Positions 33,341-57,504 of a DNA stretch of 64,000 bases are shown here, piece by piece. Source of the stretch: a bacterium (GTDB taxonomy: Bacteria; Cyanobacteriota; Vampirovibrionia; Gastranaerophilales; Gastranaerophilaceae); the NCBI GenBank assembly GCA_017478515.1, contig JAFVDH010000004.1, positions 172-64,171 on the forward strand. The letters are read 5' to 3'. The first letter of the stretch is position 1, and the number at the start of each line of letters is the position of its first letter. Below the pieces are notes generated by a model. The model did not search any database, had not been told where the DNA came from, and worked only from the letters and a program-made list of their open reading frames with translations. Both the position numbers and the translations under genes were made by a program.

Positions 33341-33571
33341 TTAAGAAATATTGCAAATCTGAAGAATGCTGCCAATACGGAGTTGTGGCGATTTGAAACA
33401 AAAATGTTAACTTTTGTAAATATGAATTTTAAAATGGCTGAAACTCAAGTATAATGCCCTATATGATATGATATGATATGATGGGATGGGGATACTAAAG
33501 TCTTTTGACCATGTTGCCGACATGAAAAGTGTTAGGACAAAGCAATATAGGAAAGTCAAAGGAATAAAACA
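33341..33571 (+). repeat. Upstream cassette copy 1 (homologous to 52794..53016)
   Basis: By-eye alignment. About 90% identity from acttttgtaaatatg (33409) to the ATG, with one 10-bp indel near the RBS. Weaker similarity for ~70 bp further upstream. Confidence 0.85.
33496..33523 (+). promoter_or_regulatory. FliA/sigma-28-like promoter TAAAGTCT-N12-GCCGACAT
   Basis: Compare the consensus TAAAGTTT-N11-GCCGATAA. Lies 48 nt upstream of the ATG at 33572 and is conserved in the second cassette. Confidence 0.45.
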
Positions 33572-34174
33572 ATGGGTATTTCAGCAAATCAGGCAAGATT
33601 AATGACGTTAACAGCAAGACAACATGATTTAGAGTTAAGAGCTCAACAGATTTCTGCAAAAAAAATGGTTCTATCTCTGCAATCTCAACAATTTGCTACT
33701 GCTTATTCCGCTTCATTAAACGAATATAGTCTTATGAAAAATGGCTCTTCTACTGTAGAATATGTAACTGAGACTGAATCTGTGGTAACAGGTTATGAAT
33801 ATGATGGTGTGACTTATTCTGATATAATGGATATTCCTTATAAAACTGTGGTTACCGGTAAAGATGATGATGGTAATGAAATAACTGAAGAGCAGCCAAG
33901 AACTGCTGATGATGAAGGTGTTACAGTTTTGACAGAGGATATTCCTACAGAATATGCTACTCGTAATTATACTGATGAAGAAACGTCAAGTTTCTTGAGT
34001 ATTACTAAGGGCAATTATGATAGTGCAATGACTGCTCTATCGACTCAAGAAAAAATTATGGATATGGAATTAACTCAAATTAATACTGAGCATCAGGCTG
34101 TTAAAACCGAATATGATTCTCTAAAATCATTGATAGGTGATAATGTTGATAAATCATTTAATATTTTCGGATAA
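33572..34174 (+). CDS. Hypothetical 200-aa protein: helical Gln/Leu-rich termini around an acidic Thr/Glu/Asp-rich centre; no signal peptide
   Basis: ORF directly after the cassette, with RBS aaaggaa. Confidence 0.6.
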   Translation: MGISANQARLMTLTARQHDLELRAQQISAKKMVLSLQSQQFATAYSASLNEYSLMKNGSSTVEYVTETESVVTGYEYDGVTYSDIMDIPYKTVVTGKDDDGNEITEEQPRTADDEGVTVLTEDIPTEYATRNYTDEETSSFLSITKGNYDSAMTALSTQEKIMDMELTQINTEHQAVKTEYDSLKSLIGDNVDKSFNIFG

Positions 34175-50253: not shown

Positions 50254-51732
50254 TTATTGATACATAACGTTCAAAAATTCATTGCTAACAGCATCTCTGT
50301 ACCATTTTGCATGGTCTGATGTGTTAAAAATATTGTTATAGTGGCTTGCAACATCGCCGTATGTAGATTTGTTTTCGCCGTATTCCATTAATTCGTGGGT
50401 ATTTTTAGCATATGGAGATGTTGGGAAAATGTCGTGCATCTGCATATAAGACGGCAATCTCCAACCTGCGTCACGATGTCCGTTAAACGCATTTTTAATT
50501 CTTGTTAATCTTTGCTCCAAAGACATTTGGCAATTATCATTATCGTCAGAAATTACAGGCCCTGCTGCGTATTCATCATTCCATGATTGTTTGTCATATT
50601 CATGAAGAATATTGTTAAAGTCGTCGGCTCTTCCCCAGTCGTTGCCTGCTGATAAACCCATTTCTCTGTTTCTTGGGTGCATATCGCATTTTTCGCCTAC
50701 AAGAGCTATGTCATTTCTTCCTGTTTTACTTTTTATTTGTTGAGTAATGTACTGCATTTGTTTGAAATTAGGAACTTCTCCAACTCCGCAGTAATAATGC
50801 ATTTCATGGTTTCCAACGTGCTTTGCACTGTCAAAGAATATTGCGTCAAATCCTAAGTCAACTGCCCAACAGCATGCATCTATAAATGCTTTTTCATGCT
50901 TGTACCAGTTAAAAGGTTCTCCTTTAACGGTCATTTGGCCTGCTGATAGAGGCATTCTGATACCTGTTTTTAATCCTCTTAAGTGAGCCATGTCATTAAA
51001 TGCTTTTACTTGTTCATCGTCACCCATTCTTTGTCCGTCACGGCAAAGCTTATCTGAAGTTAGATTTTTCGAAATTCCTGAATGCAAATCTACAGTATAT
51101 AGTGAAGAACGGCCTGTCTTTCCGTCATTTTCTCTGTTCATTGCAGGATATAATTGTGATAAAACTACGCAATTAGCAAAGCTTTTAGGTGATGGCGGGA
51201 TTGCAGGTAGTAATTTCATTACATTTAATAACCCCTCGCTTTTTTTGTCGCCTTCTGTTAATGCAACGGTTCTCGGGTTAATTTCTATATAATTTGCACG
51301 TCTTCCCCATTTGTCACCATAGTTTGGAGTTTGTATATTATTCGGAATTTCCGGATAATGGTCATTTTTCTTTGTTAATGTGCATATTGACTGAATGGCA
51401 TCCATTGGCGAGCGTTTCAAAAGATTTTCCGGGTTTTCGTTAACCCATTTTTTCCATCCTGTATTACCGCCTTTATATAATGTTTTGTATGTTTCCTGGT
51501 CTTCGTAAACATCATTGTTGCCTTTTAGTATCCAAAACAGTTTCTTGGCAGGGTTTTTATCTCCGTAGTATCCTTTAAAGTTTACTAATTGTTTGTTGTA
51601 ATTTGCAGAAAGTTCCAATGCTGATGCCGAAGTAGGTTTAACTGCTTTTGGTGCAATAGGATTTGAAGTCTTTTTGCTTATTACCGGCATTATGTTTGGC
51701 ATATACAAACTTTGGATTGCAGAAACTTTCAT
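50254..51732 (-). CDS. 492-aa protein with a divergent alpha-amylase-superfamily (GH13-like) core; N-terminus MKVSAIQS, no signal peptide
   Basis: GFDAIFFDSAKHV resembles GH13 region II (GFRxDxxKH). AHLRGLKTGIRMPLS resembles region I context. IALVGEKCD may be region III. The ORF itself is solid; the function call is weak. Confidence 0.45.
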   Translation of the reverse strand: MKVSAIQSLYMPNIMPVISKKTSNPIAPKAVKPTSASALELSANYNKQLVNFKGYYGDKNPAKKLFWILKGNNDVYEDQETYKTLYKGGNTGWKKWVNENPENLLKRSPMDAIQSICTLTKKNDHYPEIPNNIQTPNYGDKWGRRANYIEINPRTVALTEGDKKSEGLLNVMKLLPAIPPSPKSFANCVVLSQLYPAMNRENDGKTGRSSLYTVDLHSGISKNLTSDKLCRDGQRMGDDEQVKAFNDMAHLRGLKTGIRMPLSAGQMTVKGEPFNWYKHEKAFIDACCWAVDLGFDAIFFDSAKHVGNHEMHYYCGVGEVPNFKQMQYITQQIKSKTGRNDIALVGEKCDMHPRNREMGLSAGNDWGRADDFNNILHEYDKQSWNDEYAAGPVISDDNDNCQMSLEQRLTRIKNAFNGHRDAGWRLPSYMQMHDIFPTSPYAKNTHELMEYGENKSTYGDVASHYNNIFNTSDHAKWYRDAVSNEFLNVMYQ

Positions 51733-51769
51733 ACTTGGTTTAATGTCCCTAAAAATTTATATTGCCATG

Positions 51770-52793: not shown

Positions 52794-53016
52794 TTAAGAA
52801 ATGTTACAAACTTGAAAACTGTTGTAAATACTGTAGCACAGCGATTTCTAATAAAATTGTAAACTTTTGTAAATATGGATTTTAAAATGGCTGAAACTCA
52901 GTTATAATCACCTATATGATATGATATGATATGATGGGATGGGGAGTACTAAAGCTTTTTGACCATATTGCCGACATGAAAAGTGTTAGGAATAAGGCAA
53001 TATAAAGGAGAAAACA
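52794..53016 (+). repeat. Upstream cassette copy 2 (homologous to 33341..33571)
   Basis: See copy 1. TATAAT at 52903-52908, pentamer tract at 52915-52944. Confidence 0.85.
52950..52977 (+). promoter_or_regulatory. FliA/sigma-28-like promoter TAAAGCTT-N12-GCCGACAT
   Basis: Same geometry as 33496..33523. Lies 39 nt upstream of the ATG at 53017. Confidence 0.45.
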
Positions 53017-54162
53017 ATGACTTTAGTATCAAAAATGATGAATGTTCGTGAAAATGTGGTTTTAGGTAGTCTTAATTTAAAAAACACTCCAATAAATAAT
53101 CAACCAGCTACTACAAATACATCCGAAACACCTCAATCAAAAGATGATGTTGATTTAGTAGTTATAACAGGAAAAGACGATAATATAGAAGGAGCTTTAG
53201 GAAATTTATTATCAAATAATGATTCTCTTATAGACAGAATTGCATCAAAATTGAATGGGCTTTTTGGAGCTGAAAAAGCTGAAAAACAAGATCGTGGTAC
53301 AGAAGCTGTTAGAGATTATCAAGTCTTAACCGATGAACAACTTGCAGCAGAAATGGAAGAATTACTTAAAAAGAAAGCTGACATAAAACAACAAATTGCT
53401 GAATGTAAAGCAGATACTAGTATTCCATATTCAAGGAACCTAAAAGCAATTGATTTAGAAAAACAATTGAACCAAATAGAAACAGAGATAAAAGCGTGTG
53501 AAGAAGAAATGAATAGAAGAAGCAACTCTTCAAACTCTTCATCTCCGTCAGGTCTACAAAACCTTTCTAATTCTTCGGAGTTAGTAGTTGAAACAGGACA
53601 TTGGAAAAATCTTAGTGTATCTGAGCTTATTCAAGAATATAAAGAACAAGTCCAAGCTAAGCTAAAAGACTTACAAAGACAACTTGATGAAGCTAAAACT
53701 GCCAAAAGTGAAGCGGAAAGTAATGGATTATCAACAAAGTTAACAATGATTATTAATGCTAAGATAGCTGTATTAACTGCAAAAATAAATAGTTATAGTG
53801 GTATAATTCAACAATATAACAGTGAATTAGAAAGAAGAGGTTCGAATATACGTATTCAAGACGATGGAAGTATAATGGGAACACTTGAAAACAGTAATAA
53901 GCCTGAATTGAATAATGATATGAAAAATTTAAGTCCTCTATGTTCTATGTCTACAGATGAGCTTAAATCAAAACATGAAGAATTAGTTAAAAAGCAAGAA
54001 GAATTGGAAAAACAACTTGATGCTGCTAAATCTAAAATTAGTAATAATGCAAAAGAAAATGTACTTAATCATTTTGAAATACATAATTTAACAAAGCAAT
54101 TAGAACATATAAAAACTGAAATAAAAGAAATAGAAGATGAACTTGCAAGAAGAGACTCTTAA
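53017..54162 (+). CDS. 381-aa coiled-coil protein with three ~70-80-aa internal repeats, FlxA-like in composition; no signal peptide
   Basis: Repeats start near YQVLTDEQL, WKNLSVSEL and LCSMSTDEL. Each ends in ..E(M/L)xRR(S/G/D)S. AAGGAG RBS. Confidence 0.6.
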   Translation: MTLVSKMMNVRENVVLGSLNLKNTPINNQPATTNTSETPQSKDDVDLVVITGKDDNIEGALGNLLSNNDSLIDRIASKLNGLFGAEKAEKQDRGTEAVRDYQVLTDEQLAAEMEELLKKKADIKQQIAECKADTSIPYSRNLKAIDLEKQLNQIETEIKACEEEMNRRSNSSNSSSPSGLQNLSNSSELVVETGHWKNLSVSELIQEYKEQVQAKLKDLQRQLDEAKTAKSEAESNGLSTKLTMIINAKIAVLTAKINSYSGIIQQYNSELERRGSNIRIQDDGSIMGTLENSNKPELNNDMKNLSPLCSMSTDELKSKHEELVKKQEELEKQLDAAKSKISNNAKENVLNHFEIHNLTKQLEHIKTEIKEIEDELARRDS

Positions 54163-55711: not shown

Positions 55712-55809
55712 ATGTAAATATTTTGTAAAATTTACACTTGATTTGGCAATTATTTTTTTTACAGGGCTTAAAATAAACATATGAAGACATGTGTAGGAAG
55801 GTAAGATTA

Positions 55810-57504
55810 ATGAAAGTAAACTCAATTCAATCAGTAATGCCGTTTTTAGGGGCAAAAGAAGTTAAAAAAGAAAACAAAATATCTCAAAATACAACTCAAA
55901 CTTCGCCTCAACAATTAGCAAAAATGCCTAGTGCTGAGACATTTCAGGCTATGAACGGAATTAAACCCAGAACAAAAAACAGACCAACTCCTATTGTTCA
56001 CTCAAACTATGACGCCGCAAAAGCTATAGCTGATGCTGGAGTTATGCTTTCAAAAGAAGATTTTAAAAACGTTAAAAATGTTTTGAGCAGAGGCGATGAA
56101 CAAACAAGTAACGTTATGATGCAATTAAGCTTGATTAAAAGCGGAGATATAGAACCATCAACAGTTAGCCACTACTGGGAAACAGGCAAAATGAACGATA
56201 ATCTTGCAAAAGATTTAGACATGGTTTATGAGGCTCGTAAAGCAGGTAAAAACCCTGCAGATGTTTATGTTCCTACAGTAAAATCTCAAAAGGAAGGTAA
56301 CGCAAAAACAAAAATCGGCGATGTTTTTAAAGTTGCGGATGAAGATAAAATCTATGTGAAAACATCTAAAAAAGACTCAAAACAATTAGACATGGATAAA
56401 GACATGTTCGTAAAATTGTTCCCGCCTGCAAAAAGATTTACAACTCAACAACAAAGCATAGGTGATTGCTACCTTGTATCAACTTTAAATACCGTAATGC
56501 AAAATCCTAAAGCAAGAGTTGCACTATATGATGCTTTTCATCAAAACGGAAAAGACGTAACTGTTAAATTCCAAAACGGTTACGGCGAATACAAATATGA
56601 AAATGCGGAAGTTCCTAAAGATAGAGTTCAAAAATATTCTCTAAAAGGTTCAACAGGTATCAGAATTTTGGAAGATGCTTACGGCTTGGATTCTGTAAAT
56701 AAGGCTGATGTTAAATTCAGAGAAATTATGGGTCAAAAAATTGAGGCTAAAAAGGCTGAAGTTGCTAATTCAACCGGCGAACAAAAAGTTAAGGCTCAAA
56801 AATCATTAGAAGGTCATGAAAAAAGATTAAATGATTATATTGAAGCCAAAAAAGACCCATCAAGAACAATTGTAGTATGCCGTGATGATAATTATTACAA
56901 TATTTACTACGAAGAAGACGAAAACGGTCTAAAATTTGCAGACTTAAAAAATGACCCTGATAATAAATCAGATAAATTCCATAGTGCGGCAGATTTTTAT
57001 AGAGGTGCTTTAGGCGGTTATAACTTTGAAGTACTTGAAAGAATGGGCTTTGGCGGATTTAGACAATACAACTTAGACCTTGAAGAAAAAACAGTAACAC
57101 CTATGTTGAAGAAAGATAACTTTAATGAAGATTTCATCATGACAGGCGGAACAAGAGCAGGCGGAAGCAGAGTTGAAAATCCTGTGGCAAAATCAGCAGG
57201 TATTTACGGTTTCCATGCTTACACTCTTGAACCTCACAAAGATGAAAAAGGTGAATTGAAAATGAGATGTACAAATCCTTGGAATACATCTTATGATGCA
57301 GATATTTCTTACAAAGACTTCTTGAAATATTATGATTCTGTATCGATTATTGATGTTAATTCATATGGCAAAAAATTACCGCTTGAAAAACAACCGTATA
57401 AATATGATAAAGACGGTGCAGTAGTTGGTGATAATAAAAATGACGGAGAAGTAATCTGGTTTAAAAACGGTGGAAGAAAACCTGTTTTACCTCATAAAAA
57501 GTAA
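55810..57504 (+). CDS. Calpain-type (peptidase C2-like) cysteine protease, 564 aa, N-terminus MKVNSIQS, no signal peptide
   Basis: QQQSIGDCYLVSTLN (Cys), GFHAYTL (His), MRCTNPWN (Asn) in calpain order. Start moved to the ATG at 55810, which has a GGAAGG RBS. Confidence 0.7.
   Translation: MKVNSIQSVMPFLGAKEVKKENKISQNTTQTSPQQLAKMPSAETFQAMNGIKPRTKNRPTPIVHSNYDAAKAIADAGVMLSKEDFKNVKNVLSRGDEQTSNVMMQLSLIKSGDIEPSTVSHYWETGKMNDNLAKDLDMVYEARKAGKNPADVYVPTVKSQKEGNAKTKIGDVFKVADEDKIYVKTSKKDSKQLDMDKDMFVKLFPPAKRFTTQQQSIGDCYLVSTLNTVMQNPKARVALYDAFHQNGKDVTVKFQNGYGEYKYENAEVPKDRVQKYSLKGSTGIRILEDAYGLDSVNKADVKFREIMGQKIEAKKAEVANSTGEQKVKAQKSLEGHEKRLNDYIEAKKDPSRTIVVCRDDNYYNIYYEEDENGLKFADLKNDPDNKSDKFHSAADFYRGALGGYNFEVLERMGFGGFRQYNLDLEEKTVTPMLKKDNFNEDFIMTGGTRAGGSRVENPVAKSAGIYGFHAYTLEPHKDEKGELKMRCTNPWNTSYDADISYKDFLKYYDSVSIIDVNSYGKKLPLEKQPYKYDKDGAVVGDNKNDGEVIWFKNGGRKPVLPHKK

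Follow-up and report, generated by a model that had tools for sequence, protein, structure and literature searches.

Two tagged proteins in the window

The window analysed in this work is a stretch of 64,000 nucleotides (nt) located on contig C30 of a genome of the order Gastranaerophilales (GenBank assembly GCA_017478515.1, contig JAFVDH010000004.1, positions 172 to 64,171 of the forward strand); the assembly comprises 1.67 Mb, with 32% GC, and is 81%-complete, and homologues carry the annotation Candidatus Gastranaerophilales. The window encodes a GH13-like protein and a calpain-like protease that begin with almost the same eight residues. We have found that this tag, MKV(N/S)(S/A)IQS, makes up the first half of an N-terminal leader in two parts, which appears to be specific to the order Gastranaerophilales. 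The features of the two genes are the following:

51739..51766, minus strand: two-box promoter, GGCAAT-N16-ATTAAA, of the GH13-like gene, whose ATG follows after about 7 nt
51709..51732, minus strand: first half of the leader (the tag) of the GH13-like protein, MKVSAIQS, DNA ATGAAAGTTTCTGCAATCCAAAGT, by direct translation
51571..51732, minus strand: whole leader of the GH13-like protein (residues 1-54), made of the tag, a hypervariable polar spacer and VNFKG
51571..51585, minus strand: second half of the leader of the GH13-like protein, VNFKG (residues 50-54), with F52 and G54 invariant
50254..51570, minus strand: catalytic body of the GH13-like protein (AlphaFold 2 (AF2) pLDDT about 90; Foldseek matches to GH13)
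55744..55773, plus strand: two-box promoter of the calpain-like gene, TGGCAAT-N16-CTTAAAA
55810..55833, plus strand: first half of the leader of the calpain-like protease, MKVNSIQS, by translation
55837..55851, plus strand: second half of the leader of the calpain-like protease in the compact form MPFLG (residues 10-14), by orthologue alignment
55810..57504, plus strand: calpain-like (Peptidase_C2) protease of 564 amino acids (aa), matching Pfam PF00648 with E = 1.3e-5, above the curated cut-off

The original prediction, made on the letters of the window, was that the two proteins share six of their first eight residues and are unrelated beyond them. Both statements are borne out. MKVSAIQS (start 51732, minus strand) and MKVNSIQS (start 55810, plus strand) differ at two positions, and one protein has a GH13-type fold while the other matches Peptidase_C2. 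The start of the calpain-like gene at 55810 is preferred over the in-frame upstream ATG at 55789, because an AGGAAGG ribosome-binding site lies before 55810 and the near-full-length homologues (about 520-595 aa, among the 61 homologues found) start with M[KQ]V at the equivalent position.

The GH13-like protein has no Pfam match, and a sequence search of the Protein Data Bank (PDB) gave none either. Its AF2 model has a mean pLDDT of 85, the fold begins around residue 60, and the top 50 Foldseek matches in the PDB are all GH13 enzymes (branching enzymes, pullulanases and amylases). Residues 1-53 have a pLDDT below 50, and the sole helix called among them covers five residues (38-42), also below 50. 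For comparison, encapsulation peptides of microcompartments are terminal amphipathic helices of about 18 residues that go together with shell genes.

We have rejected the raw octamer identity as evidence, as a 6/8 match is neither rare nor significant on its own in this proteome: 175 such pairs occur among 1499 open reading frames (ORFs) against about 46 expected from column shuffles, most of them being signal peptides of the MKK..LL type. The MP dipeptide that was said to follow the octamer in both proteins did not hold up as a shared feature. In the calpain family it belongs to a Φ-P/S-F-x-G motif (e.g., MPFLG, TPFTG, and VSFKG), and in the GH13-like orthologues it is not conserved.

A two-part leader and its promoter

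The first half of the leader follows the pattern M-[KQN]-[IV]-[NST]-x-[IV]-[NQS]. The second half, Φ-[SN]-F-[KTS]-[GA], is found from 5 to about 55 residues after the first, with its Phe at residues 9-62. The shared tag is real, although it is a degenerate pattern and no fixed octamer, and just half of the signal. The first reading had seen the octamer correctly; the Φ-[SN]-F-x-[GA] motif had escaped it, as had the dedicated promoter and the pairs of long and short paralogues described below.

Only three proteins of the genome start exactly with MK[VI]xxIQS, the third being a DHH/DHHA1 phosphoesterase with an N-terminal extension of 88 residues. The degenerate tag was scored with a position-specific scoring matrix (PSSM) trained on the tags, which replaced a nine-residue hidden Markov model that was too noisy, and internal Met positions served as control. 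A score of at least 8 was reached by 17 of 1555 gene starts and by 5 of 6781 internal Met. The leader is carried by at least 22 unrelated proteins in this genome. They include three alpha-glucan enzymes (the GH13-like protein, a GH77 enzyme, and a glycogen debranching enzyme), peptidases (M3, M29, the calpain-like proteins, and seven HExxH paralogues), three DHH phosphoesterases, six HNH-like proteins, a DUF2023 protein, and several orphans. The second motif is present in 17 of 22 leaders. Within their first 70 aa, 14 proteins have its strict form [ILVMPAF][SNT]F[KTS]G, where 2.1 would be expected.

The replication set was G207, a complete 2.24 Mb genome of another genus that encodes no flagellin. 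There, the PSSM threshold was reached by 22 of 2009 starts and 5 of 9694 internal Met, and a regular expression combining the tag with FxG matched 24 of 2009 starts and 3 of 8889 internal Met, so that the tag is enriched 20-35 times at gene starts. The proteome-wide enrichment expected of a genuine tag has thus been established in two genomes. The tagged set of G207 contains many small proteins and some in which a transmembrane helix follows the leader.

The leaders have a distinctive composition. The maximal hydropathy over 12 residues in the first 45 aa does not exceed 1.26 in any of the 22, a value to be compared with the 25% of the proteome that lies above 2.0. Residues 2-30 are enriched in P, N, Q, S, and T and depleted in L, D, and E, Arg being depleted as well; the mean number of D plus E in residues 2-15 is 0.23 per leader versus 1.34 in the proteome. 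A Sec or lipoprotein signal was ruled out among the 22 leaders, which have neither a hydrophobic h-region nor a lipobox Cys near the start, and so was a twin-arginine (Tat) signal, as no RR plus h-region was found. A type IV prepilin leader was also discarded, since the order of residues is F-x-G and not G-F and no hydrophobic stretch follows. Type III secretion signals are reported to be of this kind, with a disordered N-terminus in which P, N, Q, S, and T abound and Leu and acidic residues are scarce. The leaders have this general composition, being Ser/Thr/Asn/Pro-rich and Leu/acid-poor, as well as disordered according to the AF2 model of residues 1-53 of the GH13-like protein. The claim that a common, separable N-terminal module sits on unrelated catalytic domains is upheld, with no Sec-type core and with a polar spacer rich in Ser, Thr, Pro, Asn, and Lys. 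We have found no published description of this leader in a literature search.

Two further proteins of the window had been noted for polar starts that do not resemble Sec signals, and both fit degenerate or compact forms of the leader:

62650..62679, minus strand: degenerate tag MQICNIGLKI of the HExxH protein (MQICNIGL), by paralogue comparison
58806..58841, minus strand: compact leader MNELNISFAQNI of the small calpain-like protein (MNELNISFAQ), by translation, containing ISFAQ with Φ-S-F-x at residues 6-9

The other HExxH paralogues of the genome have clearer tags in six of six cases: MAISAINS, MKINTITR, MQIGNINI, MNIQPITFLNFKS, MNIKSIVNINN, and MVVISSLNNIYKPVF. The small calpain-like protein is the weakest member of the group, and no clear two-box promoter was found before its gene.

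The orthologues of the tagged proteins keep both halves of the leader. In the GH13-like family, 74 distinct N-termini of orthologues preserve M-[KE]-[IV]-[NS]-x-x-[NQS], together with a block YNkA-x-[IV]-[NS]-F-K-G-Y-Y-G-D, and the 30-40 residues between them are hypervariable. Among 46 aligned orthologues, M1, Y45, F52, G54, Y55, and G57 are invariant, M1 being the sole invariant column before Y45. In the calpain family the two halves are adjacent, e.g., MQVNPISEVSFKG and MKVNNIQAFVFTG; the first half reads MKVNSIQS, MQVKAISQ, MQVNPISE, or MKVNNIQA in the orthologues, and the second half, at the same place, TPFTG, VSFKG, VFTG, MFKG, or AFSG. The codons of the tag vary freely: Ile is encoded by ATA, ATT, or ATC, the Asn at codon 7 by AAT in 9 cases and AAC in 8, and Ser by TCN in 32 and AGY in 19. 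This synonymous variation, which includes both Ser codon families, argues for selection on the peptide rather than on the RNA, indicating that the tag is maintained by selection at the protein level.

The leader is also modular. In the GH13-like family, the leader is found on long forms of 480-500 aa; short forms, of 435-445 aa, start at the fold, around the equivalent of residue 60. Short paralogues without leader are found in this very genome (contig C34, 21831-23108) and in genomes G207, G249, G192, and G085. Long tagged and short untagged paralogues coexist within the same genomes for the GH13-like, DHH, and DUF2023 proteins, and the Pfam domains of tagged proteins begin past the leader, never within it. 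The DUF2023 leader is carried by the longer G207 paralogue and by the copy of this genome (C32:12153); the untagged G207 gene (491514-491813) lies directly after fliI of the gene set B described below, at a site usually occupied by fliJ.

A two-box element with the consensus [AT]GGCAA[AT], about 16 nt, and (G)ATTTAA precedes at least 11 tagged genes here, including the GH13-like and calpain-like genes, and is also found upstream of GH13-like orthologues in other genera. Its G207 equivalent, TAGCAAA-N13-18-[GT]TTTA, precedes 39 genes, of which 21 carry the leader (odds ratio 23, p = 4e-17). This coupling between promoter and leader is an observation in itself; judging by the sequences, the leader-bearing genes form a regulon behind a dedicated two-box promoter. 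The -10-like box also ends about 7 nt from the ATG in the GH77 and debranching enzyme genes, and, being so near, suggests that the mRNAs of these two genes and of the GH13-like gene may be leaderless or nearly so. Other tagged genes have mRNA leaders of 40 nt with a ribosome-binding region of the GTGTAGG(T/A)AA type.

Candidate readers and rival explanations

We consider it very probable that the leader is a modular sorting or targeting signal of some kind. That it is an export signal is a putative assignment towards which we lean slightly. Disordered, devoid of a hydrophobic core and nearly free of acidic residues, the leader is attached to unrelated proteins, which it would direct out of the cytoplasm along a route other than Sec. 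The original description of the tag as a secretion signal is plausible. Export itself, as well as the machine that reads the tag, is what we infer from these data.

A flagellar-type export gate is present throughout the order. FlhA was found in 251 of 251 sampled genomes, falling into two score classes, and this genome contains two complete sets of export-gate genes:

Set A: C16:10309-15496 (fliPQR-flhBA) and C57:10936-17917 (flgBC-fliEFGHI)
Set B: C21:299-6372 (fliEFGH-flhA) and C34:37164-41261 (fliNOPQ-x-R), with FlgB/C/G-like rod proteins encoded on C58 and C66

The export of early flagellar substrates depends on FlhA/FlhB/FliPQR and the FliI ATPase. FlhA of set B (FlhA-B) is 70-86% identical across the order and shares 37-41% identity with FlhA of set A. 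Families f12 and f17 are the only ones in the class that lack FlhA-B, and the B-type gate is 42-69% identical in most other families. Flagellin is encoded in 93 of 251 genomes, in the same genera that have type A, and the 158 genomes without flagellin still keep a rod-only set. G207 contains set B alone, with FlhB and FliI; no hook, junction, cap, FliS, flagellin, or P ring was found in it. Tagged orthologues of the GH13-like protein occur in flagellin-less genomes, and G207 likewise has tagged proteins. As for a secretion apparatus co-occurring with the tag, which the first reading proposed to look for, the only candidate found is this gate, present in all 251 genomes; the tagged genes do not cluster with it in G207, and the outgroup genome G258 has no recognisable tag.

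Several genes related to these sets deserve mention. Between fliQ and fliR of set B lies a gene (C34:40099-40476), conserved in G207, whose 125-aa product has a Sec signal peptide. The product of C67:12983-14458, soluble and about 490 aa long, resembles the cytoplasmic domain of FlhA alone, with 26-34% identity to residues 318-688 of FlhA-B. Among the matches listed, this FlhA-C-like protein is present in Gastranaerophilales genomes, and it could be a cytoplasmic substrate receptor. In G207, a tagged GH77 gene with a two-box promoter lies directly downstream of the gene for the soluble protein.

Among the closest known parallels to the leader is the bipartite export signal of early flagellar type III substrates. 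In FlgD of Salmonella (Bryant et al., 2022, PMC8983047) it consists of 2-SIAV-5 and of 36-FLTLL-40, which is the gate recognition motif (GRM). In that system, small non-polar residues are needed at N-terminal positions 3-7, and the GRM, F-x-x-x-Φ, at least 19-30 residues downstream (PMC8983047). Nearly all tags have V or I at position 3, A or S at 5, and I or V at 6, so that the small non-polar residues at positions 3-6 are alike (MSIAVNMN in FlgD, MKISAIQS and MAISAINS here). The polar disordered linker, the second short Phe motif, and the lack of cleavage and of a hydrophobic core are also alike. The leaders differ from FlgD in that they do not carry F-x-x-x-Φ at the required distance and in that their cargo consists of enzymes and small membrane proteins, not of axial subunits. 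They differ from type III signals generally in being far more conserved in sequence, and their recognition by FlhB or FlhA is putative.

A precedent for the use of such a gate in secretion is non-flagellated Lysobacter, which exports a protease and a glucanase through its flagellar T3SS (type III secretion system) (PMC7688988). The system proposed here would resemble it in using a flagellar-type gate for secretion, without a filament and with enzymes such as a protease and a glucanase among the cargo in Lysobacter, and in having the export information at the N-terminus. It differs in its second, divergent rod-only gate set, located beside or instead of a flagellum, and in that no shared motif or dedicated promoter has been described for the Lysobacter cargos; export is here a prediction. 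In Pseudomonas syringae, the Hrp-box regulon joins unrelated type III effector genes that have a two-box promoter and a biased N-terminal signal; the machine is an injectisome, the sigma factor is HrpL, and the signal is compositional and not a sequence motif. The leader genes are similarly marked by a two-box promoter and an N-terminal signal, which here is a sequence motif. Sec, Tat, lipoprotein, prepilin, and double-glycine leaders also are N-terminal and modular and sit on unrelated proteins; the leaders described here lack the h-region, the twin arginine, the lipobox Cys, and the G|F-hydrophobic site of the first four.

By analogy with FlgD, gate triggering would fall to the small non-polar residues at positions 3-6, and docking of the substrate to the Phe motif. 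The most likely machine would be the rod-only, filament-less set B (FliEFGH-FlhA, FliNOPQR, FlhB, FliI, and FlgB/C/G-like proteins), kept throughout the order. The flagellar-type T3SS is a tentative candidate reader of the leader, since the link between leader and gate is circumstantial, built on analogy and co-presence. When all the elements are combined, i.e., a two-part leader, a regulon, non-Sec export, and the flagellar-type gate as best candidate reader, we regard this best available explanation as evenly poised between right and wrong. 

Several observations weigh against this explanation. In the complete G207 genome, the tagged genes are essentially unclustered with type III loci, and the type III operons have no two-box promoter detectable by regular expression; in the fragmented genome of the window, about 6 of 22 tagged genes lie within 10 kb of type III loci, a weak signal. 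The second motif is F-x-G/A, not a GRM, and its distance of 5-55 residues is often under the 19-30 residues required in Salmonella; in the calpain family, GH77, and many G207 proteins, the Phe motif lies within 8-20 residues of the start. Bona fide axial proteins reach tag scores that are just weakly raised in this genome (Mann-Whitney p = 0.04): flagellin (MAITINTN) is at the 95th percentile and FlgK (MSINSALT) at the 89th, hook and rod proteins being unremarkable. FliD carries ITFTG, which looks like part of the ordinary (S/T)GL motif of the FliD N-terminus; an outgroup FliD has MTFSG. The outgroup G258, whose FlhA-B is 61% identical, gave 0 true tag hits in 400 kb against about 4 expected. 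Some tagged proteins have transmembrane segments behind the leader. Of GH77, the debranching enzyme, M3, and M29, no copies other than the tagged ones were found in this 81%-complete genome, and it would be odd if housekeeping-type enzymes present in one copy all left the cell. Finally, set B has no P ring, and thus a route across the outer membrane is not evident.

Some of these observations would be accounted for if the leader were an intracellular tag, either a degron (e.g., an N-terminal ClpXP-type motif, Met-basic-Φ...) or a docking peptide. Either would gather a co-regulated set of catabolic enzymes and small membrane proteins at one protease, scaffold, or site within the cell. The enzymes that carry the tag, namely MalQ/GH77, the glycogen debranching enzyme, PepF-like M3, M29 aminopeptidase, and NrnA-like DHH, belong to cytoplasmic types, several of them being sole copies, and the small G207 proteins, some with a transmembrane helix behind the leader, point in the same direction, as do the lack of genomic linkage to a secretion machine and the outgroup that has the same gate without the tag. 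However, that an enzyme has a long paralogue with the tag and a short one without it in one genome is easier to reconcile with two locations than with two half-lives, neither a second conserved motif nor a spacer of 30-50 residues is needed by a degron, the near absence of acidic residues and Leu is typical of translocation signals, and no candidate scaffold or adaptor was identified. An intracellular role is, in our opinion, doubtful, though it has to be kept in mind.

It is also conceivable, if rather unlikely, that the leader serves export or sorting but has as its reader an undescribed machine, peculiar to Gastranaerophilales, and not the flagellar-type gate. The tag appears to be specific to the order and the B-type gate is older, as judged from its presence in other families and in the untagged G258; in addition, the motif does not resemble the GRM, the spacing rule is broken, and the tagged genes are unclustered with type III loci. 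Against such a machine, no other candidate was found, and exporters of the ATP-binding cassette (ABC) type with a C39 peptidase are absent here and in most tagged relatives. Moreover, we know of no described non-Sec system except type III that uses an uncleaved, non-hydrophobic signal at the extreme N-terminus.

Very improbable is the explanation of the tag as a by-product of composition or translation initiation, i.e., of A/T-only codons (AAA, ATT, and AAT) after the ATG in a 32% GC genome. It agrees with the order-wide consensus MKINxxN, built of A/T-rich codons, with the frequency of 6/8 octamer matches in the proteome, and with the almost leaderless mRNAs of some tagged genes, in which early codons could affect initiation. 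However, the tag is found on about 1% of gene starts, highly expressed genes being untagged save for a chance match in ribosomal protein L2, and on genes with long Shine-Dalgarno leaders as well as with very short ones; Val, Ser, Ala, and Gln codons are used, Ser from both codon families, and the F-x-G motif, the paralogue pairs, and the promoter coupling would be left unexplained.

Double-glycine leaders are common in cyanobacteria, for instance on bacteriocin-like peptides. Cleavage after F-x-G, with export through an ABC transporter that has a C39 peptidase (PCAT), would agree with the small residue (G or A) at the end of the leader before the mature domain, but this reading was rejected for practical purposes. 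Of 21 relatives, 15 lack Peptidase_C39 (PF03412), as does this genome; among the 15 are G110, G161, G039, and G008, all four 99%-complete, and G200, which is 98%-complete, each of them with tagged proteins. In addition, K, T, or S stands at position -2, where G, A, or S would be expected, and there is no LSxxELxxIxGG pattern.

Implications and further observations

Gastranaerophilales are widespread bacteria of the human and animal gut, known from genomes more than from laboratory work. Most of them keep a partial flagellar gene set, as noted since 2013-2014 (PMC4040986), and a 2026 preprint postulates secretion by these partial sets (10.64898/2026.04.24.720558). The leader and its promoter provide the first concrete, computable list of candidate substrates, about 1-4% of each proteome, including enzymes that degrade glycans, peptides, and nucleic acids. 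The leader is, in addition, a short peptide that can be fused to reporters, making the question of secretion directly testable. It also explains the N-terminal extensions of many cytoplasmic-looking hydrolases and fixes the start codons of their genes. If the type III link is true, this would be an unusually sequence-conserved type III signal together with a rod-only secretion machine, and if it fails, there would be an unknown sorting pathway to be found.

A bolder reading, which we judge improbable, is that the rod-only, filament-less second machine may have evolved independently into a system for delivering effectors, which the leader would label. Some 20-100 substrates would then be encoded per genome, co-switched by one promoter class, with a cargo of cytoplasm-type enzymes acting on glycogen, peptides, and nucleic acids plus small Inc-like membrane proteins, and possibly a translocon-like pair (C55:6230 and C55:5177). 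These human-gut 'cyanobacteria' would in that case use other cells as food or manipulate them, something for which their relative Vampirovibrio has different means.

The two genes of contig C55, which encode 810 aa (C55:5177) and 339 aa (C55:6230), are tandem tagged orphans on the minus strand, with several hydrophobic segments and no signal peptide. The product of C55:5177 appears helix-rich, and the pair is reminiscent of type III translocator pairs. The tagged GH77 of this genome (C49:18405, 801 aa) has a long low-complexity C-terminal tail with one hydrophobic helix (TVLFAAVGIAAIYKAGKAII), which is unusual for MalQ.

The canonical sigma-28 promoters mark a different set of genes, namely those of the MG[IL]SAxQAR proteins and of coiled-coil orphans, HExxH566 being the only tagged enzyme among them. 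In the window, the canonical sigma-28 consensus TAAAGCTTTTTGACCATATTGCCGACAT is located at 52950-52977 (plus strand), 40 nt upstream of the coiled-coil gene at 53017, and belongs to this separate regulon. The gene at 33572-34174 (plus strand) is a member of a large paralogous family and has a sigma-28-type promoter at 33496-33523. The MG[IL]SA[GN]QAR(L/Y) family has no Pfam match; its members share a conserved C-terminus, ...FN[IL]FG, with a variable middle, resembling axial or filament subunits. They have promoters of the type TAAAG-N-GCCGA(T/C)A, with copies on C21 (6949-8499), C19, C29, C47, C50, and C63. One copy adjoins the flhA gene of set B, and the family is also found in the flagellin-less G207.

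Finally, an orphan of 160 aa encoded at 62875-63357 of the window (minus strand) starts with MYPNLNVN and has a promoter-like box at 63416-63446. Two other proteins of the genome start with MYYNLNMN and MWYNLGMN, and the three together may represent a further shared N-terminal pattern.

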